A DNA stretch of 64,000 nt, from NCBI GenBank assembly GCA_037127955.1, contig JBAXXI010000001.1, forward strand, positions 9,217-73,216. Direction: 5' to 3'. Shown in pieces: positions 1 through 24,705 of this stretch. Under the pieces are notes generated by a model, which searched no databases, was not told the origin of the DNA, and worked only from the letters and a program-made list of their open reading frames with translations. Origin of the DNA: Candidatus Berkelbacteria bacterium. GTDB lineage: Bacteria > Patescibacteriota > UBA1384 > UBA12157. Position 1 is the first letter of the stretch. Every line of letters starts with the position of its first letter. The translations under genes were made by a program, and so were the position numbers.

Positions 1-302
1 AACTTATTATTTCCGGTTTTTGCCTTAAGACCTGCCAAGCCGCGACCTATACATAAATCACAAGGAGCAAAATTGAGATCGCCTACCGGTGCTCTCACGC
101 TCATTAAAACGTCACCTTTATTTGCAAGTTTTGTAACCTTTTTTGTATATGTGTCGAAGCTAGGATATAAAATACCGAATGTTCTGTTTCCTTGTAAAAA
201 TGGAACACCTTCAAAATCAGAATAATAAATAGATTCTGGCGATTGCCCTTGCACTACAAGAGCAACATTTGAAAGCTTGGTTTTGAAACCCACTCTAGTC
301 AT
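1..302 (-). CDS. hsdS: Type I restriction-modification specificity subunit HsdS, N-terminal part; gene continues past the window start
   Basis: Manual translation of the minus strand from the ATG at 302..300 gives MTRVGFKTKLSNVALVVQGQSPESIYYSDFEGVPFLQGNRTFGIL...LMSVRAPVGDLNF. The QGQSP...PFLQG and SVRAPVG blocks are typical of HsdS target-recognition domains. The ATG overlaps the hsdM stop (ATGACTAG). It is not in the ORF track because it is under 60 aa and partial. Confidence 0.75.
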   Translation of the reverse strand, partial: MTRVGFKTKLSNVALVVQGQSPESIYYSDFEGVPFLQGNRTFGILYPSFDTYTKKVTKLANKGDVLMSVRAPVGDLNFAPCDLCIGRGLAGLKAKTGNNK

Positions 303-1905
303 ATTTTAATCCATTTAACTGTTTTTTAATTTCAGATTCTAGATTTTTTGAGTCGGTGAAAAGCTCATTCAAATTCTTTTTATAGTCATCGATCTTACTA
401 GAAAATTGTTCTGGTGTGATATCTACATACTCAATTTTGACATCAAAATATTGCCCGGCTGATAACGAATAATTCTTTTCTTTAATCTCGCTATATTCAA
501 TAACAACAGAAAAATTTTCGATTGGCTCTTTAGTCTTGAAAGCAGAAATAATTTTTGATTCATCTTCACAGCTAAGTAGAGTTTTCTGATTTTTGCCATC
601 TTTTACTTTTTTCCCAAGTTTCGAAGCATCGACTAGCACAACTTTATCAGTGTTAGTTTTGTCGATAAAAAGAATGGACACATTCGTACCGGTAGTCGCA
701 AATATATTCGATGGCATCGAAACAACACCCTTAAGCCATTTCTTTTCTACTAATTTCTCACGAATCTTTTTTTCAATCCCGCTCTGCGCGGTAATAAAGC
801 CGGTAGGCACAACAATGGCCGCTTTTCCGGTATCATTCAGGCTCCGCATAATGTGTTGAATAAACAGTAAATAAATTGACATTTTGTCTTTGTCTTTATT
901 TGGGGTATTCGGTATGCCGGCAAAAAAACGCTCATTAAACTGTGGCAGTGATTCTAGATCATCACGCCAATCCGAGAAGTCCAATTTGAAAGGCGGATTG
1001 CTTACAATGAAATCCATCTTCTGTGGATGGCGATTGTTAAGAATTGTGTTACCTTGCACAATATTGTTGATACTATGGCTGAGACCATTTAGAATCAGGT
1101 TTAACCGTAAAAGGTTTGATGATTTCTGGCTGATGTCTTGGCTGTAAATCGTGCTTTTATCTGTGCCGATTTTACTCGCAATATTCATAAGCAGTGTTCC
1201 AGAGCCGGCACCTGGGTCGTAAACCTTCACATTTGTTGGCTTTGAATTACCTACAAGAATTTCCGCCATAACTTTAGCGACTGAATGAGGGGTGAAATAT
1301 TCGGCATATTTGCCGCCGCCGTCCTTGTTATAGTCCTTAATCATATACTCAAAAAGCGTTGAGAAGAAATCGAAGCCAGCTGAAAAAATGTCATCAAAGT
1401 TAAACTTGCTGTCGGCCAGTTTGTTGATAATGGATTTTGCAACAGCGTTGTGTTTTGAACGATCGGAAACAGCACTCTGTATGAGCTGTTCTTCAAACAA
1501 ACGAATCTCTGTTTTGCCATCTGTATGAACTGAGAAAACTGCGGAGTTAGTTACAGCAATATCGTTGAGCGTATCGTCAAATTTTTTAGCAAAATCAGAG
1601 TCTTCTTGATGTTTAAAAAGATAAGATAGCAGATGTTCCGGTTTTAAATGGGCTGAATTGTTTCCAAGTTTCATTAATAACAAACCGTATTCATTATTAC
1701 TCAGCTTTTTTAAGTCATCATATGTTTGAAGCGATGAATCAATTTTTGAAACTTCGTAAATGAATCTATCGTTTAAAAACTTGTAGAGGAAACATTGCGT
1801 TACAATTTTATATTCATTCGCATCACCACCAAGACCATTGTGAGCACAAATAGCCTTTATATCATCAACTAATTGTTTCGTTTTATTGTTATACTCTGTT
1901 TCCAT
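295..1905 (-). CDS. hsdM: Type I restriction-modification DNA methyltransferase subunit HsdM (N6-adenine)
   Basis: 536 aa. SAM-binding motif DPGAGSGTLL, catalytic NPPF (FIVSNPPFKLDFSDW), and a HsdM-type N-terminal domain. Start overlaps the hsdR stop (TAATG at 1905). Confidence 0.92.
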   Translation of the reverse strand: METEYNNKTKQLVDDIKAICAHNGLGGDANEYKIVTQCFLYKFLNDRFIYEVSKIDSSLQTYDDLKKLSNNEYGLLLMKLGNNSAHLKPEHLLSYLFKHQEDSDFAKKFDDTLNDIAVTNSAVFSVHTDGKTEIRLFEEQLIQSAVSDRSKHNAVAKSIINKLADSKFNFDDIFSAGFDFFSTLFEYMIKDYNKDGGGKYAEYFTPHSVAKVMAEILVGNSKPTNVKVYDPGAGSGTLLMNIASKIGTDKSTIYSQDISQKSSNLLRLNLILNGLSHSINNIVQGNTILNNRHPQKMDFIVSNPPFKLDFSDWRDDLESLPQFNERFFAGIPNTPNKDKDKMSIYLLFIQHIMRSLNDTGKAAIVVPTGFITAQSGIEKKIREKLVEKKWLKGVVSMPSNIFATTGTNVSILFIDKTNTDKVVLVDASKLGKKVKDGKNQKTLLSCEDESKIISAFKTKEPIENFSVVIEYSEIKEKNYSLSAGQYFDVKIEYVDITPEQFSSKIDDYKKNLNELFTDSKNLESEIKKQLNGLKYD

Positions 1906-4900
1906 TAGTTTTCTCCTTTATATTCGCTAGTATACTCATCAGCCAGAATATCTCTTATCCGGCCTGCATTTGCGACATCAAGAACTGGGACTTGTGAATT
2001 CTCAAAACTATCGACTGTAGCCTGACCGATAAAATTAGAGAAATAACCATCATTATCAACCAAGTTTTTGTTTTTACCAAGTTTCTCGGCTATCAATTTT
2101 TTAATATCTGATAGCACATCGAACAAAGGCTGATTTTGGTTGACACGACCAGTCGGTTCAAGCAATTTGAAGGTGCGGGCATACTTACGGTCACCGTCAA
2201 ATTTCTCAAGTACGACTTGATTCTTGCGGTTTAGCTCTCGGATTCGATCGTAAATGTGTTTTAACTCGGTTGAAGCATATTCCATCTTTTCTTTATTGCC
2301 ACTAGCTTCACTTTCATTGTATTCAGAAAGCAGGCGAGTGAATTCCTCGTATAAGGTTACCCATTCTGGGTCTTTCTGATTATAGTTCCTATCCAGTTCC
2401 AAGCGAGTGTTCCGGGCAATCTCCTGTAAATCATTTGCCAACAGCTTTAACTCTTCTTCGCCAGTCTTAGTAAATTCAAAAATTACTCCCTCGATAGCAG
2501 TATTGAGTAGTTCCTTACTATTAATATCATTTGTAGCATCCTTTAAATTGAGGAGCTTCAAGCGATTACTAACTTCGGTAAGCAATTTGGCAATGAGTTT
2601 AAAATCAATTTTTTCAAGGATTTCTGTGTAACCTAGCAGCCTCGCAATATTATATATATCGCGTGCCGACTCTAGCGATTTCTTTAATTGATTTATTGTT
2701 TCTTTGTCGTTAATTGCACTTATTTGACGACTGAAGGTTTCAAGATTATCTGTTGAGAATTCGGAAAGCATACTTAAAACAATAGCGATCTCTTCATCAA
2801 TTTCAGACTTACTCATAAAAAGTGAACCAAAAATGTTGTTTGGATCATCGTTTTCATCCATACCTTCGCTATATTCACGATTCAATTCGTCAAAGTAGGC
2901 CTGGTTGGTGACTTCGAACTCTTTGCTGATATCAGCAAAATCCACTACATAGCCAATGCGAAAATCACGGTATGGTCGGTTGACGCGTGTGAGTGTCTGT
3001 AATAGATTATGGGCGCGTATTTTTCTACCGAGATAGAGTTTCTTAAGTCTTGGAGCATCAAAACCGGTTAGAAGCATTGAATATACAAACAATAAATCCA
3101 GTTTACCGTCTTTAAAGTCTTTGATTTCCGTTTCGCGTGTTTCTTTATCATCTTCATCATGGAGAATAAGGGCTGCTTTAAGACCATGTTCACTAGATTT
3201 TTCATTAAACTGTCGAAACATTTCGCGCGCTTGATCAGAGCTATCTGCTACAACCATACCCCCAATAGTTTTGTCCCCGAAACGAATGCGAGAATTTTTG
3301 AAATCCTTAATAATGTATTCGAGCATTGGATCGACAAAGTTACTATGAGATCGTATTTCTTTACGATCAATCGAACCGAGTTTAGTTTCTATTTCATGAA
3401 CAATCTCGTTTAACTTGGCCTTGTAACTCGTTTCAATTTCTTCGCGCAGTAGCTTTAAAGTATATCCATCTTTGATCGAATTATTATAATAATATTTATG
3501 AATGTAGTTACCAAAAATATTGCGAGTAGTTCTTACATCTTGCTTATCACTTAGCTCTTCGTCATCTTCTTTATGTTCACCGTAAACTATTAGCGGTGTA
3601 CCGGTAAGCGCAATTTTAACAGCTGATTTGTCGGAATTATATAGATTAGCGAGAAATGATCCTTTTGGATCATAGCTTCGATGGGCTTCATCGATAAAAA
3701 ATATACGTTGAACATTAATATCATAGCCAGAATTGTTAAATGCGGTAGTGTCATCTTTAAATTTTTGTATATTCACGACCGTAATACCGGCTGTAGTAGT
3801 GTTTGAGGCAAAATCACGCACTAGTGATTCTTTGTTGTCGATAGTCTGTACTTCAAGACCGCGCTTTCTAAATTCATTGCGAGCTTGTTTTGCTAAATCT
3901 AGGCGGTCAACTATAAAATAGAATTTTGAAATAACACCTTTTTTGGCGTAGTAATCGGTCAAATATTTAACACCATAGTAACTCAAAGCGGTTTTTCCAG
4001 ATCCTTGGGTGTGCCATATAATACCGCGATCATTGCCTGCGTCCAAATAGCGTGCAATAGCTTTTGTTGCAAAAAATTGCGGGTAGCGCATAATGTGCTT
4101 TTGAATAACCGTCTCGCCGGTTATTTCGTCAATCTCATCAACATACGCGATACCATATCGAAGAATCATGATGAGACGTTTCTTTTCGAATAAAGAGCTA
4201 ATAACTCGATTGGTTGGAGCATCAATATCTTTATTACTGATAAACTCTGGCGAGTGTTTTATAACTTCGAGATTAGTGTCTCTTAATACAAAATCTTCGA
4301 CTACTTCGTCGAGGTTGTGAATTTCATCAATAATCTCGCTCTTTCGTTCTTCGCGAAAATTGTTAAACTTTGCACGAGAGTTCTTGGCAGTAGTCGCGTA
4401 GAATGCACCCTGAAGCTGATCGGCAGTTGTATCGTCGTATTCCATATTGTTTGAAAATACGAGCAATTGGGTAATATTGATAAACTTACGAAACTTTTCG
4501 TTTGCAAACCGCATGTTGATACGGTCACGCTCAGCCTTGATACCTTCTGGGTTGTTTGGTTTCTTCACCTCTATGAAAGCCAGCGGCAAACCGTTAATAA
4601 AGATTGTGATATCTGGTCGGAACTCATCTTCTCCATTTTTATTGGCGAGTTCGGTCGTAACAAGATATGAGTTTTTTTCTGGATTTTCAAAATCTACTAG
4701 CTTATAATTTCCTCCGTCCGTGCCGATGAGTTTTTTGTAAAATTCTCGCCCCAAGTCATCATTGCCAAGAGATTGCTTTACATCAGAAAAAAATCCATCG
4801 AACTCACCATTTTGCGAGTCTGTGATGTTATTTATTTTATTAAACTGATCACGAAACTCATTCACAATAATACTTGTTTCGGGATCAATATTATAATTTT

Positions 4901-5000
4901 TGTCTTTCAGAGAGAAGTATTTGTAGCCTAAACGAGTAAAATGAAGTAACGATGGAATCTTTACTCTAGAATCCTCTGAAAATGAATTATCTTTTGCCAT
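1905..5000 (-). CDS. hsdR: Type I restriction enzyme R subunit HsdR (SF2 helicase-nuclease)
   Basis: 1031 aa. Walker A HTQGSGKTALS, DEAH box (FFIDEAHRS), an N-terminal nuclease region and a long C-terminal helical domain. It sits directly upstream of hsdM with a 1-nt overlap. Confidence 0.92.
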   Translation of the reverse strand: MAKDNSFSEDSRVKIPSLLHFTRLGYKYFSLKDKNYNIDPETSIIVNEFRDQFNKINNITDSQNGEFDGFFSDVKQSLGNDDLGREFYKKLIGTDGGNYKLVDFENPEKNSYLVTTELANKNGEDEFRPDITIFINGLPLAFIEVKKPNNPEGIKAERDRINMRFANEKFRKFINITQLLVFSNNMEYDDTTADQLQGAFYATTAKNSRAKFNNFREERKSEIIDEIHNLDEVVEDFVLRDTNLEVIKHSPEFISNKDIDAPTNRVISSLFEKKRLIMILRYGIAYVDEIDEITGETVIQKHIMRYPQFFATKAIARYLDAGNDRGIIWHTQGSGKTALSYYGVKYLTDYYAKKGVISKFYFIVDRLDLAKQARNEFRKRGLEVQTIDNKESLVRDFASNTTTAGITVVNIQKFKDDTTAFNNSGYDINVQRIFFIDEAHRSYDPKGSFLANLYNSDKSAVKIALTGTPLIVYGEHKEDDEELSDKQDVRTTRNIFGNYIHKYYYNNSIKDGYTLKLLREEIETSYKAKLNEIVHEIETKLGSIDRKEIRSHSNFVDPMLEYIIKDFKNSRIRFGDKTIGGMVVADSSDQAREMFRQFNEKSSEHGLKAALILHDEDDKETRETEIKDFKDGKLDLLFVYSMLLTGFDAPRLKKLYLGRKIRAHNLLQTLTRVNRPYRDFRIGYVVDFADISKEFEVTNQAYFDELNREYSEGMDENDDPNNIFGSLFMSKSEIDEEIAIVLSMLSEFSTDNLETFSRQISAINDKETINQLKKSLESARDIYNIARLLGYTEILEKIDFKLIAKLLTEVSNRLKLLNLKDATNDINSKELLNTAIEGVIFEFTKTGEEELKLLANDLQEIARNTRLELDRNYNQKDPEWVTLYEEFTRLLSEYNESEASGNKEKMEYASTELKHIYDRIRELNRKNQVVLEKFDGDRKYARTFKLLEPTGRVNQNQPLFDVLSDIKKLIAEKLGKNKNLVDNDGYFSNFIGQATVDSFENSQVPVLDVANAGRIRDILADEYTSEYKGEN

Positions 5001-5002
5001 TT

Positions 5003-7105
5003 TTATTCCTCACTTATTTCGTCTGATTCCCTATTTTTTTGAAAAGATTGTTCTATTAAAGTCATCAAATAATCAATTTGAGTTTCGGAATTAATTTTTG
5101 CTTCTACATTGCCATTACCCCAATGGCCAAGACCAGTTACATCATAAGACATCTTCTCCGGATCGATAATTTCGTTATAATCCATGTTCATACAAACCTT
5201 TAATTGGTTTTTCTGCGGTATAATGTCGACAAAATTCGTACTATTTTTGTAAGCAATATACTTGGCTTTTATAACCTCTTTTACAGAAGAATCAATGTTT
5301 AATATACGCTGTCTCAGTTTATTAAAAAGATCCAAAATATTTCCTTGCAAATATTCCTTATAAATATCTAGTGTATATATTTGTTCCGTTTCATCAGTAT
5401 CGACTTGCTTATATTTTTGAATAATTTCACTTGGCAAGGATGGGGCAATCCAAATTTTCACCGCTTTCACCGCGAGTTCTTTACCTCTTTTGGTAATCTC
5501 TTCTTCGTTCCATGACGGCAAATTTGCTAATGAATAATTCAATCTAATAGGGCTATCTTTGAATCCTCCCTCCATCGATTGTTTATCCGCAAAAGCTTTG
5601 TCGCTCAGTTCGGGATTATAGCCTGTCAATGTTAGGTTTCCGATCGTATGAAGATACTTCTCCTGAATCTCTTTCCAATTATCACCCAAATTGGCCTGCC
5701 ACTCGCTTGATAACTTCGGATTTTGTGGCATTATATGTTCAATTGTGAAGGTATCGACAGATACCTTTTCTTTTCGGCCAAAATTTTCTAATTTGTCTAA
5801 AAGATAATTGCGTCTAGAAAAGTTATATACATCTTTTATAAGAAGTTCGCTCATAAATTCTTCGTCATTTGGGAATCTCCGGTAGGAATCTTTCGCCAGC
5901 AATACCGCCTTAACGCTTTCTAAATAATTATCTCGATCAATAAACTTGGCCAAATTGCCGAAAGTTTTATTCATTGAATTTGTTGGGATACCACAAACTC
6001 CACGTCTAAACACATACGATTCGACTAAACGCAATATCTCGATTAGCTCTTCTTTTATAATTCTATTTTGATCATAATCTTCTAAGACCACCATTAGAAA
6101 TGGATACGCAACATCAACCTTTAGCGTATTAATGTCTTTAATCGTACCCCTTATTTCAGTATCGTTAACTCTCTCAAATGCAAGTTCAACAAAACGCTTG
6201 GAGTGATGATAGACATCGGCAACTATCTCGGAAATCGTTAATTTACAACTACTAGCGTAAACTTTAAAATTTTCATAAATTTGGTTTATATTAGGAATTC
6301 TTCCAGTTTTGATTGTTAAATAATCGCGCATAAATCTATCAAAAAGAACTGAATATTCAGCGTGACCAAAACTTTGTTCCATCGGGTACCATGACTTTTC
6401 ATACACTTCCACTTGATCATCTTGTTCAAGTCCCATTAAAACATAATTACGAATTAAATCAGCTTGGGATAAATCTAGTCCAGTTGAATTGAGACTTTCA
6501 AATATTAATTGTGGATTGTCTCTATCCCTATCAAGAGCTATATCCACGATAATTAGCTTGCTGATTCCCTTGTATAATTCTTCAACATCAATATTCAATT
6601 CTTTTATTTTGTTTATAAAAAAATTATAATTTTCATTTATTCTGCCAGATTGATTTTCTACAGCGCTTCTACCTTCAAGCAAATTAATAAAAGCTTCTCT
6701 GTCGCTTTTGGTTAACATTAATCTGTATTTTAGGTCGCCTTCTTCTTCACTATTAATCAAATAGTAGTTATTTATTTTTCTTTTTGACATATCCGAGGTT
6801 TCATCTTGATCTGCGATAGAATCACGGATTGCCATCATCAATAAAGAAAGGGTGGTTAGCCTTTGCTGGCCGTCAATCACTAGAAGTTTAGAAACAGCTG
6901 CGACCTGATATAGTCCATTTTCAATATAAACGATCGATCCAATAAAATGACCGCCGGTTTCTTCACTTTTTACCGCGCGCAAGATGTCGCTCCAGAGTTC
7001 ATCGCATTGTTTAGTCGTCCAGCTATAGGTTCTCTGGTAAATAGGTATAATAAATTGTTTCGTGCCTTGTAAAAATTTCGTTAGACTTGTTTCTACTGCT
7101 TTCAT
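5003..7105 (-). CDS. DUF262/DUF1524 fusion protein (GmrSD / BrxU / SspE-like type IV modification-dependent nuclease family)
   Basis: 700 aa. N-terminal DUF262 motifs IPIYQRTYSW and DGQQRLTT. C-terminal DUF1524 His-Me-finger motif FTIEHIMPQNP ... NLTLTGYNPELSDKAF. The stop lies 2 nt from the hsdR ATG. Confidence 0.8.
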   Translation of the reverse strand: MKAVETSLTKFLQGTKQFIIPIYQRTYSWTTKQCDELWSDILRAVKSEETGGHFIGSIVYIENGLYQVAAVSKLLVIDGQQRLTTLSLLMMAIRDSIADQDETSDMSKRKINNYYLINSEEEGDLKYRLMLTKSDREAFINLLEGRSAVENQSGRINENYNFFINKIKELNIDVEELYKGISKLIIVDIALDRDRDNPQLIFESLNSTGLDLSQADLIRNYVLMGLEQDDQVEVYEKSWYPMEQSFGHAEYSVLFDRFMRDYLTIKTGRIPNINQIYENFKVYASSCKLTISEIVADVYHHSKRFVELAFERVNDTEIRGTIKDINTLKVDVAYPFLMVVLEDYDQNRIIKEELIEILRLVESYVFRRGVCGIPTNSMNKTFGNLAKFIDRDNYLESVKAVLLAKDSYRRFPNDEEFMSELLIKDVYNFSRRNYLLDKLENFGRKEKVSVDTFTIEHIMPQNPKLSSEWQANLGDNWKEIQEKYLHTIGNLTLTGYNPELSDKAFADKQSMEGGFKDSPIRLNYSLANLPSWNEEEITKRGKELAVKAVKIWIAPSLPSEIIQKYKQVDTDETEQIYTLDIYKEYLQGNILDLFNKLRQRILNIDSSVKEVIKAKYIAYKNSTNFVDIIPQKNQLKVCMNMDYNEIIDPEKMSYDVTGLGHWGNGNVEAKINSETQIDYLMTLIEQSFQKNRESDEISEE

Positions 7106-7108
7106 ATT

Positions 7109-7408
7109 TTATTCCTCAATTTTCGCCCGATTAATAATATTTTCAATGACCCAATATTTATAGCCAGCAATCTCTAAGTATTTATATTCTTTGTCATAAA
7201 ATGGCTTAATGTAACCATTTGAATCTATTTCTCTTACGAACATTTTTATTTCGTCTGATTTGTCTGGATAATCATCGATAACAACATATTCATGCGGAAT
7301 TTCCGGCATGGTTTTGGCAAATGTCCAAGCTAAATGAGAAATTAGTTTTGTAATTTCTTTTTGCAAATTCATTAGCTTTATTTTACGCTTCTGGAGGGAT
7401 TTATTCAA
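7109..7408 (-). CDS. Hypothetical 99-aa protein, first gene of the defense operon
   Basis: ORF track entry with an unrecognised conserved-looking core (WTFAKTMPEIPHEYVVIDDYPDKSDEI...GYKYWVIENI). It ends 3 nt before the DUF262/DUF1524 start codon, so it is likely co-transcribed. An alternative start at MNLQKE is 12 codons downstream. Confidence 0.5.
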   Translation of the reverse strand: MNKSLQKRKIKLMNLQKEITKLISHLAWTFAKTMPEIPHEYVVIDDYPDKSDEIKMFVREIDSNGYIKPFYDKEYKYLEIAGYKYWVIENIINRAKIEE

Positions 7409-7493
7409 GTTTACAAAAACACCTGGTCAAGAATTCCAAGAATTATCAATATTTTTTTGGGAAAGAGTTAATTATTTAGGAATCAATACAAGA

Positions 7494-7712
7494 TTAATCT
7501 CGTCTTTCTTCATTTAGATTGAAACTAACATTTTTATTGTTTATTTGAATTCGGTTTTTGGTTTGCAACTCATTAAAAGCCTGCTGGAAGGTCATTCGTT
7601 TTTCTTTAACCATTCTTTCCAATGTAAAATAAAGAGCCAGCGGCACAGTGTAGCCATCTGCTTTCATTTTTTTATACCATTCGGCAACAGTTTTAAATTC
7701 ATTAATATCCAT
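7494..7712 (-). CDS. Hypothetical small protein (72 aa)
   Basis: ORF track only. Sits in the defense-island gap between the 99-aa gene and the PLD-like gene. No recognisable motif. Confidence 0.3.
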   Translation of the reverse strand: MDINEFKTVAEWYKKMKADGYTVPLALYFTLERMVKEKRMTFQQAFNELQTKNRIQINNKNVSFNLNEERRD

Positions 7713-7796
7713 ATCTTGATTATATCAGAAAGTGGTAAATTATTAATTCAAAAAGTCCATATTTCACAGCAAGCATAGTATGACAAAATCACACTT

Positions 7797-8522
7797 TTAT
7801 TTGTAAAGAAAACTTATCAAGCCGAAAACAAATTTTGCTCCTTTCAACGATACTATTAATACTTTAACGATGGCAAATAACCACCACGCGAGAAACGGAA
7901 CAACTACTCCCAAAAAGAACAATTTGATCTTAGCCAGTTTATTCTCTTCAAGATTCTTGGCCATATTGCGATATAGCCGCTCATACTGAAACTTGTAGGC
8001 TTCAGCCAGCTTTTTGCTTAGCCCCAGATAAGACATAGTTTCTTGCACCAATATCTCATCCGAGATTCGCCTCATCATTTCACGACTTTGTCTTTGCGAA
8101 AGAATATTTAAGCTCCCTTCCCAAAGTATTTCGCGATCAATAATGGCTAATTTTTCATGAACAAATCCTGGCAGATGAGTAATATGGGCGCCGGACTCTT
8201 CATAATCCTTAAGTGCACAAGAAATTTCCGCTTTCATGAAATAATCATGTTCTTCAAGCGGTCTGGTAAAAATAAAAACCGGTATGTTTCTTTTCCGAAG
8301 TTCAATAAGCGTCCGTCTGAAAAATTCCGATCGAAACTTTGAAACAAACGGGCTGTAAATAACCACTTCTTTTTTGGCGGCCAACATATCTTTAACGAAT
8401 GCCTGATAAAAACTCTTTTCATTAAAAAGATTGCCTTTTTGCATTTCTTTCAATTTCTTGGCATCAACTTCATTTTGGATATTTGTAAGATGCTGCCTAT
8501 ATGCCGGTGATTGTCGTAACAT
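7797..8522 (-). CDS. PLD-superfamily single-HKD protein (Nuc/BfiI-like nuclease fold) with a C-terminal transmembrane anchor
   Basis: 241 aa. Canonical HKD motif HEKLAIIDREILWEGSLN (HxKxxxxDx6GSxN). Only one HKD copy, implying a dimer like Nuc. The C-terminal hydrophobic helix is LFFLGVVVPFLAWWLFAIVKVLIVSL. Confidence 0.7.
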   Translation of the reverse strand: MLRQSPAYRQHLTNIQNEVDAKKLKEMQKGNLFNEKSFYQAFVKDMLAAKKEVVIYSPFVSKFRSEFFRRTLIELRKRNIPVFIFTRPLEEHDYFMKAEISCALKDYEESGAHITHLPGFVHEKLAIIDREILWEGSLNILSQRQSREMMRRISDEILVQETMSYLGLSKKLAEAYKFQYERLYRNMAKNLEENKLAKIKLFFLGVVVPFLAWWLFAIVKVLIVSLKGAKFVFGLISFLYK

Positions 8523-8597
8523 TGTGCCCTCCTTAATTTATTTTGATATAGATTATGACTTTGTGTTATACTCGCCTTGTAATATGAAAGGAATAAT

Positions 8598-8816
8598 ATG
8601 AACGAAAAAGAACTTGAAGAAATGTTTGCCAACCCGTTTTATGCTGTTAATATTTTGCCGTCACTTTGCTTGGAACATGAGCCGATGGTCTCCAAGGAAA
8701 CTTGGGTCAAGGCTAACGCTAAGATGATTGACGAAATCGGCAAAGTAGAATGGCTAAAACGACTTCTTGATGTCTTGGAATCCGGCGGCCCGCAGAGCGA
8801 TCAAACGGCTGAATAG
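8598..8816 (+). CDS. Hypothetical small protein (72 aa)
   Basis: ORF track. An upstream TATACT -10-like element at 8562..8567. No recognisable domain. Confidence 0.3.
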   Translation: MNEKELEEMFANPFYAVNILPSLCLEHEPMVSKETWVKANAKMIDEIGKVEWLKRLLDVLESGGPQSDQTAE

Positions 8817-8870
8817 CTAGTTTTCTCTTACTCACTGGCGTTTAGGTGTAAAATCTGCTAAAATAACAGC

Positions 8871-9086
8871 ATGGGTACTGATAATTCTCTAAAAATGAAT
8901 CAAACAATCGGCGAACAGTTCAAAGCAGCTAGGGAAAAACTTCACCTGACCCAATTGGAGGTAGCCGAAAAAGCTGAAATAAGCACTAATTACTACGCGC
9001 AGATGGAACGCGATGAAGTTAATCCCTCAGTTGAAAAGGTGCGAGAAGTTAAAGAAGTTTTAAAAATAAAAGAGATCAAGATATAA
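8871..9086 (+). CDS. XRE-family helix-turn-helix transcriptional regulator
   Basis: 71 aa. LHLTQLEVAEKAEISTNYYAQMERDEVNPSVEKV matches the Cro/C1 HTH pattern. Followed by a hairpin plus T-run at 9208..9227. Confidence 0.7.
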   Translation: MGTDNSLKMNQTIGEQFKAAREKLHLTQLEVAEKAEISTNYYAQMERDEVNPSVEKVREVKEVLKIKEIKI

Positions 9087-9207
9087 ATTTATCCTGATCT
9101 TTGGGTAGATATGCTCTCATAATTTGATCGAGCCACTTCAAAAGGTGTTCGAAGGAAAGTGCATTAAGTCTACCATTCAACCAGCTCATGACGAGCTAAA
9201 TGAAAAT

Positions 9208-9227
9208 GACCTTTTAAGGTCTTTTTT
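9208..9227 (+). terminator. Weak Rho-independent terminator after the XRE gene
   Basis: gacc-ttttaa-ggtc followed by TTTTTT. Confidence 0.35.
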
Positions 9228-9232
9228 AGTAT

Positions 9233-9266
9233 TAAAAAATACGATCCAATTGGGTCGTATTTTTTA
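9233..9266 (-). terminator. Rho-independent terminator downstream of the DEAD-box helicase gene (bidirectional)
   Basis: aaaaaat-ACGATCC-aatt-GGGTCGT-attttttaa. A 7-bp stem with one G-U pair, flanked by A-run and T-run. Confidence 0.6.
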
Positions 9267-9280
9267 ATTTAATTTATTTT

Positions 9281-10534
9281 TTAAGCTTGAACAAAAGTTA
9301 AAGCTTTACCAGAACTCGCTCCACGACCAGTTCGACCAATACGGTGAACATAATCATTATAGGTCTGAGGAATAGTATAATTAATCACATGGGTAACATC
9401 TTTAATATCAAGTCCACGAGCAGCTACATCGGTTGCAACCATAATATTAATTGCACCAGTCTTAAACTGACTCAAAGTACGTGATCGCTGTGACTGATTT
9501 TTATTCGAATGAATCGATTCAACCTTAAATCCACCAACCAACAAACTTGAAGTTAAACGCTCAACCTCCATTTTAGTTTCAGCAAAAACTAAAACTCGTT
9601 GAAAATCAGGCGATTTTAAAAGATTGGAAAGATGATCAAATTTAGTTGTTTCATTTTCAAAGCGAACCACATCTTGATCAATATTTTCAGCCGTATCACC
9701 CGTTTTAACCTCAATCGTCACCGGATTTTTCAAAAACTGACCAATAAATCCACGGATTTTGATTGGCAAAGTTGCCGAAAAGAACAATGATTGTCGTTCA
9801 ACCGGCATAACCTTTAACATTTCTGTGATTGTATTAATGAAACCCATATCCAACATACGATCAACTTCGTCCAAAACAATATTATTGAATTCTGGAAGTT
9901 TAATATATCCACGATCAATTAAATCATTTAATCTACCTGGCGTACCAATTACAAAATTTGGCTCACGACGCAAATTACCCATTTGCTTATGGATTGGCGC
10001 GCCGCCAACGCAACAAGCAAAAAAGATACGCATGCCCCAAGAAAATTTACGTAATTCTTCTTCAATTTGAAAGGCCAATTCTCTAGTTGGCGTAATAATC
10101 AAAACTTTTTGGCTTCGATCATTATAAACCTTATTAATTAATGGCAATAAAAAAGCGGCGGTTTTACCGGTTCCGGTATTAGCCAAACCAATCAAATCGC
10201 GTCCATCAAGAATATAATTAATTGACTGATCCTGAATTGGAGTTGGCGATAAATAATTTCTCTGCTTTAAATTGTCTTGTAATTCTTTACAAAACGGGAA
10301 ATCACTAAAAGCATTTTTAATCTCAACGGCAACTACTGGTTTTTTATCAATTGATTTGTTTATAAACTTAGAGACATCGATTCGTTCACCTCTAAATTTC
10401 TGTCTACCAGAATTGCCTCGATTATTTGATCGAGAAAAAGATGGTCTACTATTACCATTAGACATTCCGCTATTAGATCTAAATTTTGAACCTGGTCTAC
10501 GACCGAAATTACCAGCTGAACTGTTTCGTTGCAT
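9281..10534 (-). CDS. DEAD-box ATP-dependent RNA helicase
   Basis: Motifs TGTGKTAAF (I), PTRELA (Ia), DEVDRML (II), SAT (III), HRIGRTGR (VI). The most probable start is the ATG at 10534 (MQRNSS), preceded by AAAGGA 7 nt upstream. The track ORF starts at an upstream TTG. The N-terminal ~60 aa is an S/R/G/N-rich low-complexity tail. Confidence 0.9.
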   Translation of the reverse strand: MQRNSSAGNFGRRPGSKFRSNSGMSNGNSRPSFSRSNNRGNSGRQKFRGERIDVSKFINKSIDKKPVVAVEIKNAFSDFPFCKELQDNLKQRNYLSPTPIQDQSINYILDGRDLIGLANTGTGKTAAFLLPLINKVYNDRSQKVLIITPTRELAFQIEEELRKFSWGMRIFFACCVGGAPIHKQMGNLRREPNFVIGTPGRLNDLIDRGYIKLPEFNNIVLDEVDRMLDMGFINTITEMLKVMPVERQSLFFSATLPIKIRGFIGQFLKNPVTIEVKTGDTAENIDQDVVRFENETTKFDHLSNLLKSPDFQRVLVFAETKMEVERLTSSLLVGGFKVESIHSNKNQSQRSRTLSQFKTGAINIMVATDVAARGLDIKDVTHVINYTIPQTYNDYVHRIGRTGRGASSGKALTFVQA

Positions 10535-10763
10535 GTTTTTTCCTTTGGCACACAAAAAGTGTGCAATTAATTAATTTCACAATTGCAATAATAAAACTTC
10601 GAAATTAATCGGAAATAATATGCAATGCGAGACGCTTACCAACTTACTGGCAAACGATTTGCTCGCAAAATTCTTTTTAAAACTTGAGAGCAAGATATTG
10701 ACTAAAGTATACTATAACACATTTTCAACTAAATGTAAAGAGATAAAGAGTATTTATTTATTT

Positions 10764-15354: not shown

Positions 15355-15471
15355 TAAAATACGATTTTTGCCAAGAGTAAATGGAAAAAATTTGACATAT
15401 ATTTAATACAAAGTTATGCTAAATATATATTAAATACCCCTACCATAGGTATGGGTCAATAAAGGAATATT

Positions 15472-15744
15472 TTGGACCAAAACCGTAAAAATATCATCAC
15501 TAATTTTAAAAAAGCCAAAAGCCACTTGGATAAAATTATCAAAATGACTGAAGATGGCGAGTATTGTATTAACATTATGCAACAAAACCTGGCCGTAATC
15601 GGTCTATTAAAATCGGCTCACCAAATATTAATGGAAGGACACCTTAATACTTGCTTTAAAAGCGCTATGAATTCAGCTAGTGAAAAAAGAAAACAAGAAA
15701 TGATTGAGGAAATTTTAAAAGTCTCAAAACTTGCAAACAAATAA
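15472..15744 (+). CDS. csoR: CsoR/RcnR-family metal-sensing transcriptional repressor (DUF156)
   Basis: 90 aa. Helices with the conserved C/H/C ligand pattern (EYCINIM ... H ... C). Heads a copA operon. Confidence 0.8.
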   Translation: MDQNRKNIITNFKKAKSHLDKIIKMTEDGEYCINIMQQNLAVIGLLKSAHQILMEGHLNTCFKSAMNSASEKRKQEMIEEILKVSKLANK

Positions 15745-15771
15745 TTACTTACTGATTTTTAGGAGGAAGAT

Positions 15772-16740
15772 TTGAACTATTGGATCATATTTTTTACTGG
15801 ATTAACCACCGGCGGACTTTCCTGTCTAGCACTTCAAGGCGGATTGCTTACCTCAACCATGGTTGAGAGTCAAACCAAATCAGCCCGTATTCGCAGCATC
15901 ATACTTTTTTTAATTTCTAAGCTCACTGCCTATACCATACTTGGATTAATATTAGGATTTTTGGGCGAAGTTTTTACACTTTCGCCAAAAGTTTTAGGCG
16001 GACTCAATATTTTTATTGCCCTATTTATGCTTGGGGTCGCTTTGGAAACCTTAAAAGTTCACCCGATTTTTAAGTTTTTTCTTTTGCAGCCACCGAAATT
16101 TTTACGCCGTCTAATCTTTAAGCAAGAAAACGAAAAAAGCAGTTTCACTGCCATCATCTTAGGCATATTTACAGTTTTAATTCCTTGCGGTGTGACTCAA
16201 GCTATGATGGCGCTCGCTGTCAGTACCGGCAGACCTCTGGTCGGTGCTACCACCATGTTTTTCTTTATCCTTGGTACTATTCCAGTTTTCTTTATTCTAG
16301 CTTATTTTGCCAGCGAAATTGGTGAAAAATTCAAAAACATATTCTACAAAATTGTAGCCGTATTTTTAATCATTCTATCGATTTATACTTTTAATCATGG
16401 CCTGCGCTTAAGTGGGATCAACTTGAGTACCCCAAAAAACAGTATCAGTCGAAACAGCGTGATTGATGATAACACTCAAAAAGTCACCATTAAACTCGAC
16501 AACAAAATTGGTTATACTCCAAATTCTATTATTCTTAAAAAAGATGTGCCCGTTGAACTTTCGGTTTACGCCAATAGTGCCACTACTTGCGTCAGAGTTT
16601 TCGTCATTCCAAGTCTCAAAGTCAATAAAGTCGTGCCAGAGAAAGAACCATTGATTATTAAATTTACCCCGACCAAACTAGGCAAAATTCCATTTACCTG
16701 CTCCATGGGCATGTATCAAGGCGAATTTGTTGTCGAGTAA
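15772..16740 (+). CDS. Membrane protein: DsbD_2/CcdA-like six-helix core with two membrane-embedded Cys, fused to a C-terminal cupredoxin-like beta-sandwich
   Basis: TM1 [11 protein letters not shown] and TM4 [10 protein letters not shown] mimic the CcdA/DsbD two-Cys topology. The C-terminal ~100 aa ends [17 protein letters not shown], which resembles the plastocyanin Y-x-F-x-C-x-x-H-x-x-x-G-M-x-G tail but with Cys/Met only. Located between csoR and copA. Confidence 0.55.
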
Positions 16741-16757
16741 TTTATAAAGGAGCTATC

Positions 16758-18953
16758 ATGAAAAAACAAATTCAAATCATTGGTATGCACTGTACCAGTT
16801 GTGCCGCCAACATCGAAAATAGTTTACTTAAAATACCGGGCGTCATCGATGCTGACGTTAATTATGCTTCAGAAAAAGCCACGATTGATGTTAAAGAAGA
16901 TTTTTCTGACGATAACACTCTAATTAAAACTATTGTAAATGGTGGCTATAAAGCCGTATTGATAAATAAAAAAAATGATAATCAAATGGATCACATGCAC
17001 CACGATCACGACAAAATGGTTTGGCGAAACTTTCTTTGGGCCGCCAGCCTTAGCTTGCCATTAATCATATTTATGTTTTTACCGATGAATCCTTACATTA
17101 GAATCATCTCCTTGATTTTAGCCACGCCAGTTCAGTTTATTATTGGCGCCAGCTTTTACAAAGGCATGTGGCAAGGATTAAAAAATAAAACTTTCAATAT
17201 GGATTCTTTGGTAGCTATCGGCACTTCGGCTGCCTACTTTTTCTCTATTTATAATTTTTTCCATGACGGTGCGCTTTACTTTGAAACCTCCGCCCTTTTA
17301 ATTACATTTGTCTTACTTGGTAAATTCCTTGAAGCCAAGGCTAAAGCTCGGACAAATGATTCAGTTAAAAAACTGGTTGGTTTACAGGCCAAAACGGCCC
17401 GAATTATCACAAATGGCAAAATTCAAGATATCCCGATTGAGGAAGTAAAAATTGGTGATATAATTTTAGTCAGACCGGGCGAAAAAGTCCCAGTCGACGG
17501 CGTCATTACCAAAGGCAGTTCGACTCTTGATGAATCAATGGTGACTGGCGAAAGTTTACCAGTTGATAAAACTATTGGCAATAATGTCATAGGTGCGACA
17601 ATAAACGAAACTGGCTCATTTGAATTTCGCGCCGAAAAAGTTGGCAGCGACACATTAATCGCTCAAATCATCAAATTTGTTGAGGAGGCGCAAGGGGCTA
17701 AAGCGCCAATTCAAGCTTTTGCCGACAAGGTGTCAAGTTGGTTTGTTCCAGCAGTTATTGTTATTGCGATTTTAACTTTTTGTATTTGGTTTTTTGCACT
17801 TAATATTGGTTTTGAAAAATCTCTTTTGTTTGCCACGGCCGTCTTAGTCATTGCTTGCCCTTGCGCCTTGGGCCTAGCTACACCAACCGCGATCATGGTT
17901 GGGGTTGGACTGGGTGCTAAATACGGTATTTTAATTAAAGGTGGGGAACCGCTCGAAATCGCCCAAAAGGTAAACACCATAGTTTTTGATAAAACTGGAA
18001 CACTGACTGAGGGAAAATTAGTCGTAACTGATATTGAGTTAAATCCAAAATCCGAATTACGAAATCCGAATGAAATACTAAAAATAGCTGCATCGCTCGA
18101 ATTTGGATCTGAACACCCGATTGCCGAGGCAATTATCAATAAAGCCAAAAAAGATAATATCAAATTAGTTGAAGTTACAAATTTCAAGGCAATTGCCGGT
18201 CATGGCATTACCGGCGAAATTGATGATAAAAAATATTATTTAGGTAATCGAAAATTAATGATAGATAATAAAATTAAAATTGATGATTTTAATGATAAAA
18301 TCGAAGCATTAGAAAGCCAAGGCAAGACCGTTATGATTTTAGCAAGTGATACTATCATTGGCCTAATCGCGGTGGCCGATACCATTAAAACTACAACCAA
18401 GCAGGCAATTGCTAAATTAAGATCGATAGGCTTAACCATTTACATGATGACTGGTGATAATGCAAGGACCGCCAATGCCATTGCTAAAGAAATCGGTATT
18501 AATCATATTTTGGCCGAAATTTTACCAGAACAAAAGGCGCAAGAAATTAAAAAAATACAAAATGGAAATCATATTGTCGCCATGGTAGGAGATGGTATTA
18601 ATGACGCACCGGCCCTGGCCCAAGCCGATCTAGGTATTGCTATGGGCTCTGGCACCGATGTCGCCCTTGAAAACGGCCAAATAGTTATTATAAAAAATGA
18701 CTTAATAAACATAATTACGGCGATCGAACTTTCGCGCAAAACATTTTCTAAAGTTAAACAAAATCTTTTCTTTGCCCTGTTTTACAACACTTTAGGTATC
18801 CCAATCGCCGCTGGCGCTTTTGCGGGTCTCGGACTGGTTTTACGACCGGAATTTGCCGGTCTCGCCATGGCCCTAAGCTCTATATCGGTCGTGACTAGTT
18901 CCATTCTTTTAAAATCTTTTAAGCCAAAGAATACTTTAATTGACAAGATATGA
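16758..18953 (+). CDS. copA: Copper-translocating P1B-type ATPase
   Basis: N-terminal HMA domain [14 protein letters not shown]6 CPC motif ([12 protein letters not shown]), DKTGTLT phosphorylation site, GDGINDAP hinge. Confidence 0.92.
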
Positions 18954-18986
18954 TATGATATATTTAAATTCAATAGAAAGGATTTT

Positions 18987-19289
18987 ATGAGTTTCGAAGA
19001 AAGAATTATTAAAGTTCCCGGGCAAGATAAAGGTAAAATCTTTATATTTGCCTTAAGCACCTGCGTATGGTGCAAGAAAACTAAACAACTACTAAATGAT
19101 TTAGGCGTAATGTACGATTACATTGATGTTGATTTAGTTTCAGGCAATGCTGAACAAGAGTTAATGGATGAATTTAAAAAATACACAAATAATATTTCTT
19201 TTCCAACTATCATCATCGAAGATGGTCAAGAAGTTATTACCGGTTTTGACGAAGCTAGAATAAAGGAACTATTTGAAAATGGAAAATAA
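18987..19289 (+). CDS. Glutaredoxin-like thioredoxin-fold protein (CxxC)
   Basis: 100 aa. ALSTCVWCKKTKQLL active-site CxxC. Overlaps the next gene by 17 nt. Confidence 0.7.
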   Translation: MSFEERIIKVPGQDKGKIFIFALSTCVWCKKTKQLLNDLGVMYDYIDVDLVSGNAEQELMDEFKKYTNNISFPTIIIEDGQEVITGFDEARIKELFENGK

Positions 19290-19566
19290 ACCAAAATCCT
19301 TACTTAATCCAGACAAATCATTTACCGACGAGGTCTTAAAAAACCTTAAAGTCAATGTAGAGCGCTACGGTTATGCGGCTTGCCCTTGCAGATTGGCTTC
19401 TGGCAAAAAAACTGAAGATGCCGATATTATTTGCCCATGCGAATATCGCGGCCAAGATGTGGCCGAATATGACACTTGTTTTTGCGGACTTTATGTCAGC
19501 CAAAAAGCCATCGACGAAAATATTCCCGTCAAACCAATCCCAGATCGCCGATTGGATAAAATTTAA
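19273..19566 (+). CDS. Ferredoxin:thioredoxin reductase catalytic-subunit-like [4Fe-4S] protein
   Basis: 97 aa with CPC-x16-CPC-x12-CFC (CPCRLASG...ICPCEYRG...CFCGLY). This matches the FTR catalytic CPC/CPC/CHC pattern with His replaced by Phe. Confidence 0.7.
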   Translation: MKMENKPKSLLNPDKSFTDEVLKNLKVNVERYGYAACPCRLASGKKTEDADIICPCEYRGQDVAEYDTCFCGLYVSQKAIDENIPVKPIPDRRLDKI

Positions 19567-19572
19567 AATATC

Positions 19573-19609
19573 AAAAAAGCCCGGTATTTAATCGTACCGG
19601 GCTTTTTTA
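19573..19609. terminator. Bidirectional Rho-independent terminator between the copper operon and bipA
   Basis: aaaaaa-GCCCGGTA-tttaatcg-TACCGGGC-tttttt. A perfect 8-bp GC-rich stem flanked by A-run and T-run. Confidence 0.85.
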
Positions 19610-19615
19610 TTTCAA

Positions 19616-23203: not shown

Positions 23204-23280
23204 TGGGGTGGCTGACCGGACTCGGACCGGCGACAGCTTGGACCACAACCAAGTGCTCTACCAACTGAGCTACAGCCACC
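23204..23280 (-). tRNA. tRNA-His (anticodon GTG) with encoded G-1 and 3' CCA
   Basis: Manual fold: G-1, acceptor GTGGCTG/CAGCCAC, D-arm GCTC-AGTTGGTA-GAGC, anticodon arm CTTGG-TTGTGGT-CCAAG, T-arm GCCGG-TCCGAGT-CCGGT, discriminator C, CCA. Confidence 0.85.
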
Positions 23281-23342
23281 ATACGATATGACCTAAATAT
23301 CTATTAAATCATACCATAAATTTACGTTTTTATCAAGAAATA

Positions 23343-24368: not shown

Positions 24369-24438
24369 ATTTACCTTTCTCAATATTAACCTTATGTGAT
24401 ACAAAAAATCAGCCAATGCTGTTTCTTTGTAAATTTTA

Positions 24439-24515: not shown

Positions 24516-24519
24516 ATTT

Positions 24520-24593: not shown

Positions 24594-24626
24594 CCGCACA
24601 CTTCATATATTTCTATTTAATTTTAA

Positions 24627-24705
<79 letters not shown>

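Follow-up and report, generated by a model that had tools for sequence, protein, structure and literature searches.

A small gene of an unnamed, widespread family precedes a GmrSD-family nuclease and Type I restriction genes in an uncultured Candidatus Berkelbacteria

The DNA analysed here, which we call the window, is a stretch of 64,000 nucleotides from an uncultured Candidatus Berkelbacteria (CPR/Patescibacteria), and the region at its start is very probably a combined Type IV-like and Type I restriction cluster. Five genes, for a small protein, a GmrSD-family nuclease, HsdR, HsdM and HsdS, share the minus strand at the places assigned to them in the initial annotation, and are flanked by a promoter-like element and several further genes:

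3..302, minus strand: hsdS, N-terminal 100 codons, running off the start of the window (PADLOC Specificity_I, 1.3e-21)
295..1905, minus strand: hsdM, N6-adenine DNA methyltransferase, 536 aa (Pfam N6_Mtase, 8e-66)
1905..5000, minus strand: hsdR, restriction subunit, 1031 aa (Pfam HSDR_N, 8.8e-27; SWI2_SNF2, 2.9e-40)
5003..7105, minus strand: GmrSD-family nuclease, 700 aa (three Pfam domains)
7109..7372, minus strand: small gene, 87 aa, unnamed family; putative nuclease partner
7380..7408, minus strand: candidate promoter-like element TTGAAT-17 nt-TAAAAT (consensus scan, 9/12)
7494..7712, minus strand: 72-aa ORF between the PLD gene and the small gene (called on the public contig)
7797..8522, minus strand: PLD-family (PLDc_2) protein with a hydrophobic C-terminal tail (Pfam PLDc_2, 7.7e-10)
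8598..8816, plus strand: 72-aa ORF of a divergent pair
8871..9086, plus strand: HTH_3 regulator of the divergent pair (Pfam HTH_3, 1.9e-11; PADLOC capH, 9.5e-10)

Profile matches support the identification of the DUF262/DUF1524 nuclease and of all three hsd genes, and the catalytic motifs are intact in the translations of the cluster proteins. As predicted for 5003..7105, the nuclease matches DUF262/GmrSD_N over residues 9-222 (Pfam, 4.1e-37) and DUF1524/GmrSD_C, a His-Me finger, over residues 412-545 (1.2e-24); it also has a DUF5655 domain at residues 583-690 (7.5e-13) that was absent from the initial annotation. Its translation carries the motifs IYQR, DGQQR (residues 78-82) and FESLN in the N-domain and EHIMPQ and GNLTL in the C-domain. 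The protein matches the PADLOC profile of HEC-06 over residues 7-553 (PDLC04157, 3.6e-75), and its best PADLOC model, far above HEC-06, is 'Orf5' (PDLC02693, 6.3e-190), the source of which was not traced in a literature search. HsdR combines an N-terminal PD-(D/E)XK nuclease with an SF2 motor, as is characteristic of Type I enzymes, with additional Pfam matches to ResIII (2.4e-24) and T1R_D3-like, a PADLOC match to REase_I (5.8e-45), and DEAH and D..E.K motifs in its translation; its TIGR00348 match (1.9e-72) scores 244.8 bits against a curated cut-off of 284.55. HsdM matches MTase_I of PADLOC over its full length (1.6e-255) and NCBIfam TIGR00497 hsdM under the curated cut-off (2.9e-49), and contains an NPPF motif (SNPPF). 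The hsdS gene is complete on L113, which is the same contig as the window at greater extent, where it encodes 416 aa with Methylase_S; the two target-recognition domains of HsdS are assigned at the level of this match and of the full gene.

The junctions between the five genes are tight. On the minus strand, the small gene ends with TAA at 7111..7109 and the GmrSD gene begins with ATG at 7105, leaving a 3-nt gap, the GmrSD gene ends with TAA at 5005..5003 and hsdR begins with ATG at 5000, leaving a 2-nt gap, and hsdR and hsdM overlap by 1 nt at 1905 (TAATG), all as first described. The overlap between hsdM and hsdS, however, is 8 nt rather than the 4 nt reported initially (ATGACTAG; ATG 302..300, stop TAG 297..295), and the gene calls on the full contig confirm this (hsdM 15468-17078, hsdS 17071-18321). 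The full contig also does away with a limit of five genes, since genes for a UvrD-like helicase and a DUF2779 protein come after hsdS at 13-nt spacing. Four consecutive tight junctions would occur by chance with a probability of about 0.36^4 = 0.02, which is suggestive, but tight spacing is nonetheless usual in this genome, of which about 93% is coding: gaps of 3 nt or less are found in 36% of the co-directional neighbour pairs of the window. Shine-Dalgarno-like GAGGA or AGGAG sequences lie 7-9 nt before the ATGs of the GmrSD gene, hsdR and hsdM. No convincing minus-strand terminator was found within 300-7408, where four weak matches (4312, 1280, 1030 and the equivalent of L113 16093) have stems of 5-6 pairs and lie within coding sequence, and promoter-like matches are as frequent as in shuffled sequence (33 found versus 32.2 expected).

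The promoter-like element at 7380..7408 ends 7 nt ahead of ATG 7372, and no Shine-Dalgarno sequence lies between the two. The stretch from TTGAAT to this ATG is identical at 34 of 36 nt in loci L005 and L030, with the similarity ending abruptly upstream of TTGAA. The 99-aa reading frame of the initial annotation is present and extends to TTG 7408, its mechanical maximum, but the likeliest start is ATG 7372, which gives 87 aa. The TTG sits in the conserved -35-like hexamer, the public annotation (P0001) is an 87-aa protein from ATG 7372 that is 100% identical to ours, and in most of 16 homologues a candidate start lies 16-17 codons ahead of the FAKTMP motif, as ATG 7372 does. A repeat search over 7100-9300 gave nothing clearly meaningful near the small gene, and Rfam found no RNA family in 1-9300, its only hits being tRNAs elsewhere in the window.

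Upstream of the small gene, it is uncertain whether the 72-aa ORF at 7494..7712 is a member of the restriction unit. It has no significant family match, the weak NCBIfam hit to PtuA (E 0.0044) being far under the cut-off, and when compared with the 229-aa gene in the same slot of L005 the two proved unrelated; the ORF is not conserved there. The best promoter-like match (7746..7719, 10/12, with an extended -10) lies near this ORF. The PLD gene, in contrast to it, shares 71% identity with a gene in the same relative place in L005 and is probably a defence-related neighbour conserved with the cluster. A divergent HTH gene likewise flanks the PLD gene of L005, and the divergent pair at 8598..9086 is a candidate regulator of the island.

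The small gene, which the initial annotation presented as an oddity of this locus, belongs in fact to a large family that accompanies nucleases whether hsd genes are present or not. The protein has 54 close homologues, and a profile search (E<=1e-3) retrieved at least 3,114 representatives of clusters at 50% identity, from CPR bacteria, Proteobacteria, Bacteroidota, Actinobacteriota, Planctomycetota and phages. None of Pfam, NCBIfam, PADLOC and PHROGs contains the family, and the novelty of the locus rests on it. Its members share the motif FAKTMPxIPHEY...YKYW...IINRAK. Among 68 diverse members, M22, H27, Y65, Y73, W74 and N81 are invariant, and a K and an R are nearly so within the same fold of about 85 aa; Pfam at E<=1 gave these members no consistent family, only scattered matches in one or two of them. 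The AF2 model is confident (pLDDT 92) and consists of a helix, two strands, a helix and four strands, but neither a PDB profile search (best E 0.12) nor Foldseek against the PDB (best E 0.48) yielded a match, and the protein is unlike any known DNA-binding or modified-base reader domain, an observation that counts against a recognition role. So does its charge, as the window copy is acidic (pI 5.2) and the pI of the family varies from 4.4 to 10.1 (median 8.0), which is atypical of a general DNA binder. Relatives were found in phage contigs; tblastn with the small protein and a distant member gave no match in 50,697 GenBank phage genomes. The domain is duplicated in tandem in P0055-57, P0059 and P0080, which would fit a dimeric binding module.

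We compared the surroundings of the small gene in 80 non-redundant loci, many of them too short to show neighbours and all retrieved by the pattern KTMP[ED]IPH, so that the sample is biased to one part of the family. In at least 25 of the 80, a nuclease directly adjoins the small gene or is fused to it. GmrSD genes lie directly downstream in seven (the window, L005, L007, L016, L031, L034 and L035) and directly upstream in three (L014, L051 and L059), and in L026/L027 the domain is fused to GmrSD (profile E 6e-38). Other partners are NucS_C/DUF8426-type nucleases (L001, L003, L037, L047 and L058), a DUF4268 protein (L012), PLDc_2 (L105), AlwI (L070) and, in L015/L055, an EEP nuclease with 36% identity, over 268 aa, to the EEP portion of P0075, a fusion protein; PDDEXK_4 is fused to the domain in P0103 and P0161. 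Two further assignments are tentative: the 'HNH-like' label of the L017 fusion came from a Cys/His pattern alone with no Pfam match, and an MT-A70-like reading of the gene downstream in L018 had no Pfam support. The cassette of small gene and nuclease stands beside hsd genes with GmrSD in the window, L005 and L007, with a NucS-like nuclease in L037 and L058 and with PLD in L105, and occurs in L001, L003, L012, L016 and L035 with no hsd genes. Small proteins 60-76% identical to that of the window are paired with nucleases of unrelated folds, which argues that their function is independent of the fold of the partner. The family's combinatorial association with GmrSD, NucS-like, PDDEXK_4, EEP, PLD and AlwI nucleases is of the kind known from readers of modified DNA. 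Across the wider family, generic class-I SAM methyltransferases are the domains most often fused, and there are also fusions to GNAT, NUDIX, AdoMet decarboxylase and integrase domains; what the partners have in common may therefore be something else than DNA, such as RNA, a nucleotide or a protein. Nuclease-free contexts also occur, with PAPS reductase/ParB or with neighbours that have no assigned function.

Taking these observations together, we lean towards an explanation in which a cassette of small protein and GmrSD nuclease precedes a complete hsdR-hsdM-hsdS set and the small protein is the partner of the nuclease. By analogy with their families, HsdM and HsdS would methylate host sites and HsdR would cut DNA that lacks this methylation, while the NTP-binding DUF262 domain of the GmrSD protein would sense DNA, typically modified DNA, for cleavage by the His-Me finger. 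Transcription probably starts at the conserved promoter-like element upstream of the small gene and would then proceed through the nuclease and hsd genes, each with a Shine-Dalgarno sequence of its own within the end of the gene before it. Comparative genomics makes it likely that the small protein is functionally linked to the nuclease, with which, and not with the hsd genes, it would work. That its role is specifically one of recognition or targeting is a tentative proposal, to which we give somewhat less than an even chance: the protein would be a separately encoded module, probably a dimer, that recognises nucleic acid or a DNA modification and is attached, by gene adjacency or by fusion, to nucleases whose folds are unrelated. 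More speculative still is the possibility that it represents a new widespread domain, a portable recognition subunit common to at least five unrelated folds of restriction nuclease and to phage DNA-modification enzymes, plausibly a reader of modified or non-self nucleic acid, so that the cassette of the window would be a two-component Type IV enzyme with recognition in trans.

C proteins time or limit expression in Type II R-M systems, and the small protein might be a transcription factor with the same effect on the nuclease and hsdR, although we consider this unlikely. Like a C gene, the small gene comes first, with a nuclease gene closely coupled to it, in the window and at least 13 other loci, and the conserved promoter-like element abuts its start with no Shine-Dalgarno sequence, reminiscent of the leaderless transcripts of C genes in several R-M systems; the protein also exists in tandem and dimeric forms. 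C proteins, however, have a helix-turn-helix, of which there is no trace in the Pfam matches or in the two helices and six strands of the AF2 model. Many relatives are fused, at either end, to enzymes (nucleases, NUDIX, integrase, methyltransferases), which would be unusual for a dedicated regulator, and in at least five loci the small gene is downstream of the nuclease. In addition, residues H, Y, W, N and R hardly vary, which points to a single ligand kept across the family and not to a range of operators. The 120 nt ahead of 42 stand-alone members gave no shared operator, only AT-rich words near shuffle level (the top word occurs in 18 of the 42, versus 13-17 in shuffles).

It is improbable that the small protein is a safety catch, i.e. 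an antitoxin- or immunity-like inhibitor holding the nuclease inactive until infection. This role would suit a small acidic protein whose gene directly precedes, and is coupled in translation to, that of a nuclease that could harm its own host; the relatives in phage contigs would also be in keeping, as nuclease inhibitors are common in phages. Yet an inhibitor should co-vary with its target, whereas small proteins of 60-76% identity accompany GmrSD, NucS-like and DUF4268 partners; stable fusion to nucleases at either terminus is unlike a releasable inhibitor, the family is not consistently acidic, and the fusions to methyltransferase, GNAT and NUDIX domains would be left without explanation. 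Just as improbable, in our view, is that the adjacency reflects mere clustering in a defence island or mobile element, with an unrelated small gene (e.g. a phage-derived accessory) and internal promoters driving hsdRMS, so that the five genes would not form a single transcription unit. The frequency of gaps of 3 nt or less, promoter-like sites within the GmrSD gene (e.g. 5757..5730, 10/12) and the many family contexts with no nuclease are in keeping with it, but fusions to GmrSD, EEP and PDDEXK_4 speak for a functional link beyond clustering, a nuclease adjoins or is fused in at least 25 of 80 loci even though many are too short to show neighbours, and promoter-like matches are at chance rate with no convincing terminator-like site between the genes. 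Least probable is a small enzyme or nucleotide sensor whose product or ligand would control the neighbouring effector with no DNA binding, to which the invariant H, Y, Y, W and N (and nearly invariant K and R), the fusions to nucleotide- or cofactor-using NUDIX, AdoMet decarboxylase, SAM methyltransferase and GNAT domains and the PAPS-reductase-like neighbours in phage contigs would lend themselves, but the protein resembles no known catalytic or ligand-binding fold, 85 residues are few for an enzyme, and in the loci sampled no other association is as strong or recurs as often as that with DNA nucleases.

The interest of the locus thus lies in its small gene, which represents a family thousands strong with a near-invariant motif, a confidently predicted but unmatched fold and a repeated link to nucleases. 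If the protein were a sensor or targeting module, as we tentatively propose, it would enlarge the catalogue of modification-dependent restriction architectures, help to find new defence genes through their association with it and possibly provide a new DNA-recognition reagent; if it were a regulator or a safety catch, it would be a control device common to unrelated nucleases.

In modification-dependent restriction enzymes, a modular combination of sensor and nuclease is the rule (PMC6765204; also PMC12191111). The family described here resembles them in that many unrelated nuclease folds go with one and the same small domain, by fusion or as neighbours, but differs in also being fused to non-nuclease enzymes and in having no sequence or fold similarity to the sensor domains PUA/EVE/YTH/ASCH, SRA, winged helix, SBD or iEndoIII (Pfam, PDB profile and Foldseek). 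The pairing of a Type IV-like nuclease with Type I R-M is a further case, from the little-studied CPR bacteria, of a defence strategy that is already on record. The core idea of the initial annotation, that GmrSD and Type I R-M together would cover modified and unmodified DNA, is right as a plausible rationale but is not new, having been published for related systems (PMC4619093; PMC11411939; bioRxiv 10.1101/2024.01.29.577857), and the pairing itself is known from RloF, TgvAB and HEC-06/BrxU. Among defence functions, Type I R-M domains are found next to GmrSD most often (RloF; PMC4619093), and GmrSD-like genes are often embedded in Type I R-M (bioRxiv 10.1101/2024.01.29.577857). The nuclease of the window had been described as embedded in this way, but it actually precedes hsdR and does not lie between hsd genes, unlike the GmrSD-like genes that sit inside Type I R-M, Hma and BREX systems. 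HEC-06 sits in an Hma system, whereas the window has no Hma genes and the neighbours are hsdRMS and the small gene. A single gene suffices for HEC-06 (bioRxiv 10.1101/2024.01.29.577857), and members of the GmrSD family therefore do not all need a partner; both HEC-06 and BrxU are reported as single proteins, in contrast to the nuclease of the window with its coupled small gene. TgvAB, a published pairing of Type IV with Type I R-M, is similar in that two genes form a Type IV-like cassette attached to a Type I R-M operon and that a second protein accompanies the full GmrSD protein or is required by it (PMC11411939); in the window, such a requirement is putative. The tgvAB genes lie between hsd genes and TgvA is itself a DUF262 protein, whereas the cassette of the window is upstream of hsdR and the 87-aa partner has neither DUF262 nor any other Pfam match. 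The nuclease shares with RloF of Campylobacter jejuni, HEC-06 and BrxU the combination of DUF262 and DUF1524, the DGQQR motif and the His-Me finger, and is co-directional with the hsd genes. To these known GmrSD systems the window adds a C-terminal DUF5655 domain, a coupled small gene of an unnamed family and a CPR host.

Our analysis suggests that the small protein encoded by the first gene of the cluster very probably functions together with the nuclease encoded beside it, since split and fused pairs of the two exist for both GmrSD and EEP nucleases; for this cassette, neighbouring hsd genes are optional. In the window, the cluster was read as follows:

7109..7408, minus strand: ORF of the small gene (ORF reading)
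5003..7105, minus strand: GmrSD-family nuclease gene, 700 aa (ORF reading and family matches)
1905..5000, minus strand: hsdR, 1031 aa (ORF reading and family matches)
295..1905, minus strand: hsdM, 536 aa (ORF reading and family matches)
Window start, minus strand: first 100 codons of hsdS, the rest lying beyond the window (PADLOC Specificity_I)

The 700-aa protein matches GmrSD_N/DUF262 (4e-37) and GmrSD_C/DUF1524 (1e-24) in Pfam, as the initial annotation had proposed for 5003..7105, and has an additional C-terminal DUF5655 domain (7.5e-13, Pfam). Its translation retains intact DGQQR and His-Me finger motifs, and the PADLOC models Orf5 (6e-190) and HEC-06 (4e-75) both score above the SspE and generic Type IV models. 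The hsd assignments are likewise borne out by Pfam and PADLOC: HsdR carries HSDR_N, SWI2_SNF2, ResIII and T1R_D3 domains, HsdM matches N6_Mtase and MTase_I (PADLOC, 1.6e-255), and HsdS matches Specificity_I (PADLOC, 1.3e-21) across the 100 codons inside the window. Together, hsdR-hsdM-hsdS is a complete Type I system.

The junction sequences agree with the initial reading of a 3-nt gap between the small gene and the GmrSD gene, a 2-nt gap before hsdR and a 1-nt overlap (TAATG) between hsdR and hsdM; the hsdM/hsdS overlap (ATGACTAG), previously given as 4 nt, is 8 nt, also in the gene calls of the full contig. GAGGA or AGGAG lies 7-9 nt 5' of the ATG of the GmrSD, hsdR and hsdM genes. A 12-nt string, TGAGGAATAAAA, occurs twice on the minus strand, at 7106-7117 (1 nt off the GmrSD ATG) and at 5001-5012 (abutting the hsdR ATG), and the proteins upstream of both copies terminate in -EE. 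Separate promoters or terminators that would divide the proposed five-gene unit were not apparent: a minus-strand search between the genes gave no convincing terminator hairpin, the few matches having stems of 5-6 pairs inside coding sequence, and promoter-like matches in a consensus scan were not above the shuffled rate (33 vs 32.2 ± 6.1). About 93% of the window is coding, and 36% of its co-directional neighbour pairs lie ≤3 nt apart; tight spacing is thus ordinary here, and the junctions favour a single unit only moderately. The co-directional run extends past five genes: on the window's own contig beyond the window start (L113), where the complete hsdS encodes 416 aa, genes for a UvrD-like helicase (619 aa, 13 nt after hsdS) and a DUF2779 protein (493 aa, after a further 13 nt) continue on the same strand (18335-20264), with no terminator-like site between them. 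The genes in this run may together constitute a larger unit with a role in defence or repair.

The small protein, initially read as 99 aa, is 87 aa from ATG 7372 in the public annotation, and the homologues point the same way: a candidate start lies 16-17 codons ahead of FAKTMP in most of the 16 examined, as does ATG 7372. The 36 nt 5' of this ATG read TTGAAT-17 nt-TAAAAT-7 nt, and 34 of them are identical in the related loci L005/L030, whose small protein is only 76% identical; similarity to these loci ends abruptly 5' of TTGAA. We infer that this block is the cassette's own promoter, abutting the start codon without a Shine-Dalgarno sequence. A second promoter-like match at 7746..7719, closer to consensus, precedes a 72-aa ORF. 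The upstream neighbours are:

7494-7712, minus strand: 72-aa ORF (ORF reading)
7797-8522, minus strand: PLD-family (PLDc_2) gene with a hydrophobic C-terminal tail (family match)
8523-9086, plus strand: divergent pair, 72-aa ORF plus HTH_3 gene (HTH_3; PADLOC capH-like, 9.5e-10)

Two relatives that are syntenic elsewhere carry unrelated genes between the PLD gene and the small gene (72 aa in the window vs 229 aa at 7311-8000 of L005); this position behaves as a variable insertion point bordered by the conserved promoter-like block. The PLD protein, 71% identical to the L005 gene in the same relative place, has partial PADLOC matches to MkoC and MkoB and may be another nuclease of the island. 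A tandem 14-nt repeat (TAATATGAAAGGAA / TAATATGAACGAAA, 8580-8607) lies over the first start codon of the divergent pair and could be an operator. Between the HTH gene and a DEAD-box helicase gene (9281..10555, minus strand), a near-perfect 19-nt palindrome with flanking A and T runs (9231-9268) is terminator-like on both strands. Seven tRNA genes in three groups (23207-29938, minus strand; Rfam) are unrelated to the cluster.

Searches of Pfam, NCBIfam and PADLOC with the small protein gave no match, and PHROGs gave an insignificant one at most (E 0.089); 68 diverse members scanned singly gave no consistent Pfam or PHROGs family. The protein is strongly conserved all the same: a word-indexed search returned 54 homologues, and an exhaustive profile search 3,114 cluster representatives at E ≤ 1e-3, including 1,338 at ≤ 1e-10. 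The family motif is F-A-K-T-M-P-x-I-P-H-E-Y … Y-K-Y-W … I-I-N-R-A-K, with M22, H27, Y65, Y73, W74 and N81 invariant in the 68-member set, and tandem duplications of the domain occur. Loci were collected by homologue look-ups and by scanning genome, metagenome and viral-contig sequences with a single peptide pattern; the domain was located by profile and the set reduced to 80 non-redundant copies. Its partners at these loci (L) or in homologous proteins (P) include:

GmrSD directly downstream, gap -11 to +39 nt: window, L005, L007, L016, L031, L034, L035
GmrSD directly upstream: L014, L051, L059
GmrSD fused, small domain C-terminal: L026, L027 (Bacteroidales; GmrSD profile E 6e-38)
NucS_C/DUF8426-type PD-(D/E)XK nuclease: L001, L003, L037, L047, L058
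DUF4268 protein: L012
EEP nuclease, adjacent: L015/L055
EEP nuclease, fused: P0075 (Pfam); P0136 and L013-type fusions (sequence motifs, similarity)
PLDc_2: L105
AlwI-type endonuclease: L070
PDDEXK_4, fused: P0103, P0161

Over 268 residues, the EEP nuclease adjacent to the small domain in L015/L055 shares 36% identity with the EEP portion of fusion P0075. The cassette stands without hsd genes inside the fetched flanks of five loci (L001, L003, L012, L016, L035), and beside them with three nuclease types: GmrSD (window, L005, L007), NucS-like (L037, L058) and PLD (L105). At L058 (73-4255), an EcoR124-type HsdR is followed by a NucS_C-like nuclease with DUF5655 and then the small-domain gene; DUF5655 thus accompanies the small domain again, here on a nuclease of another fold. 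The gene downstream of the small gene in L034 (1874-4297) encodes an 807-aa GmrSD_N protein with HEPN-like and DUF4357 regions in place of a recognisable DUF1524. Distant members precede PAPS-reductase/DUF3440 and ParB genes in phage contigs; in the phage-like contigs L008/L009, L103/L111, L110 and L112 they overlap the PAPS-reductase/DUF3440 start, with ParB_N genes next, an arrangement that may be a phage module for DNA modification. In other distant members the small domain is joined to a class-I SAM methyltransferase, GNAT, NUDIX, AdoMet decarboxylase, tyrosine integrase or Bro-N domain.

As to what the small protein does, the reading we tentatively favour is that of a module, encoded apart from the nuclease, for recognising or targeting nucleic acid, which may be modified DNA. 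Its conserved aromatic/His/Asn/Arg set, combined with many nuclease folds, is a sensor-domain pattern that suggests this role by analogy with modification-dependent restriction enzymes, in which sensor domains are combined with many nuclease folds (PMC6765204; PMC12191111). However, the window's protein is acidic, pI is inconsistent across the family, many fusions are to non-nuclease enzymes, and no link was found between its fold and any known reader. The position and promoter context of the small gene resemble those of a dedicated controller protein, but the absence of an HTH, the fusion of the domain to other proteins in relatives and the lack of a shared motif in upstream regions of the family weigh against that role. 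An antitoxin-like inhibitor of the nuclease is disfavoured in turn, since small proteins 60-76% identical to each other accompany nucleases of unrelated folds, making a fold-specific interface unlikely.

GmrSD homologues next to or within Type I R-M loci have ample precedent. Type I domains are the commonest defence neighbours of GmrSD, with RloF as an early example (PMC4619093), and GmrSD-like genes often lie inside Type I R-M, Hma and BREX systems, 96.7% of them co-oriented (bioRxiv 10.1101/2024.01.29.577857). The initial interpretation of complementary coverage by Type IV-like and Type I activities is thus right in kind but not new, this rationale having been published for embedded GmrSD-like genes (bioRxiv 10.1101/2024.01.29.577857). 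The locus belongs to the metagenome-assembled genome of a CPR bacterium, Candidatus Berkelbacteria. It is an intact restriction cluster of Type IV-like plus Type I composition, ordinary in principle, and its point of interest lies in its first gene, which belongs to a large, unnamed, nuclease-associated family. The locus departs from the typical HEC-06 arrangement of a single gene in an Hma system, and it is not TgvAB, a two-protein GmrSD-like system within a Type I operon (PMC11411939), because the nuclease's partner here is no DUF262 protein and their cassette precedes hsdR rather than being embedded.
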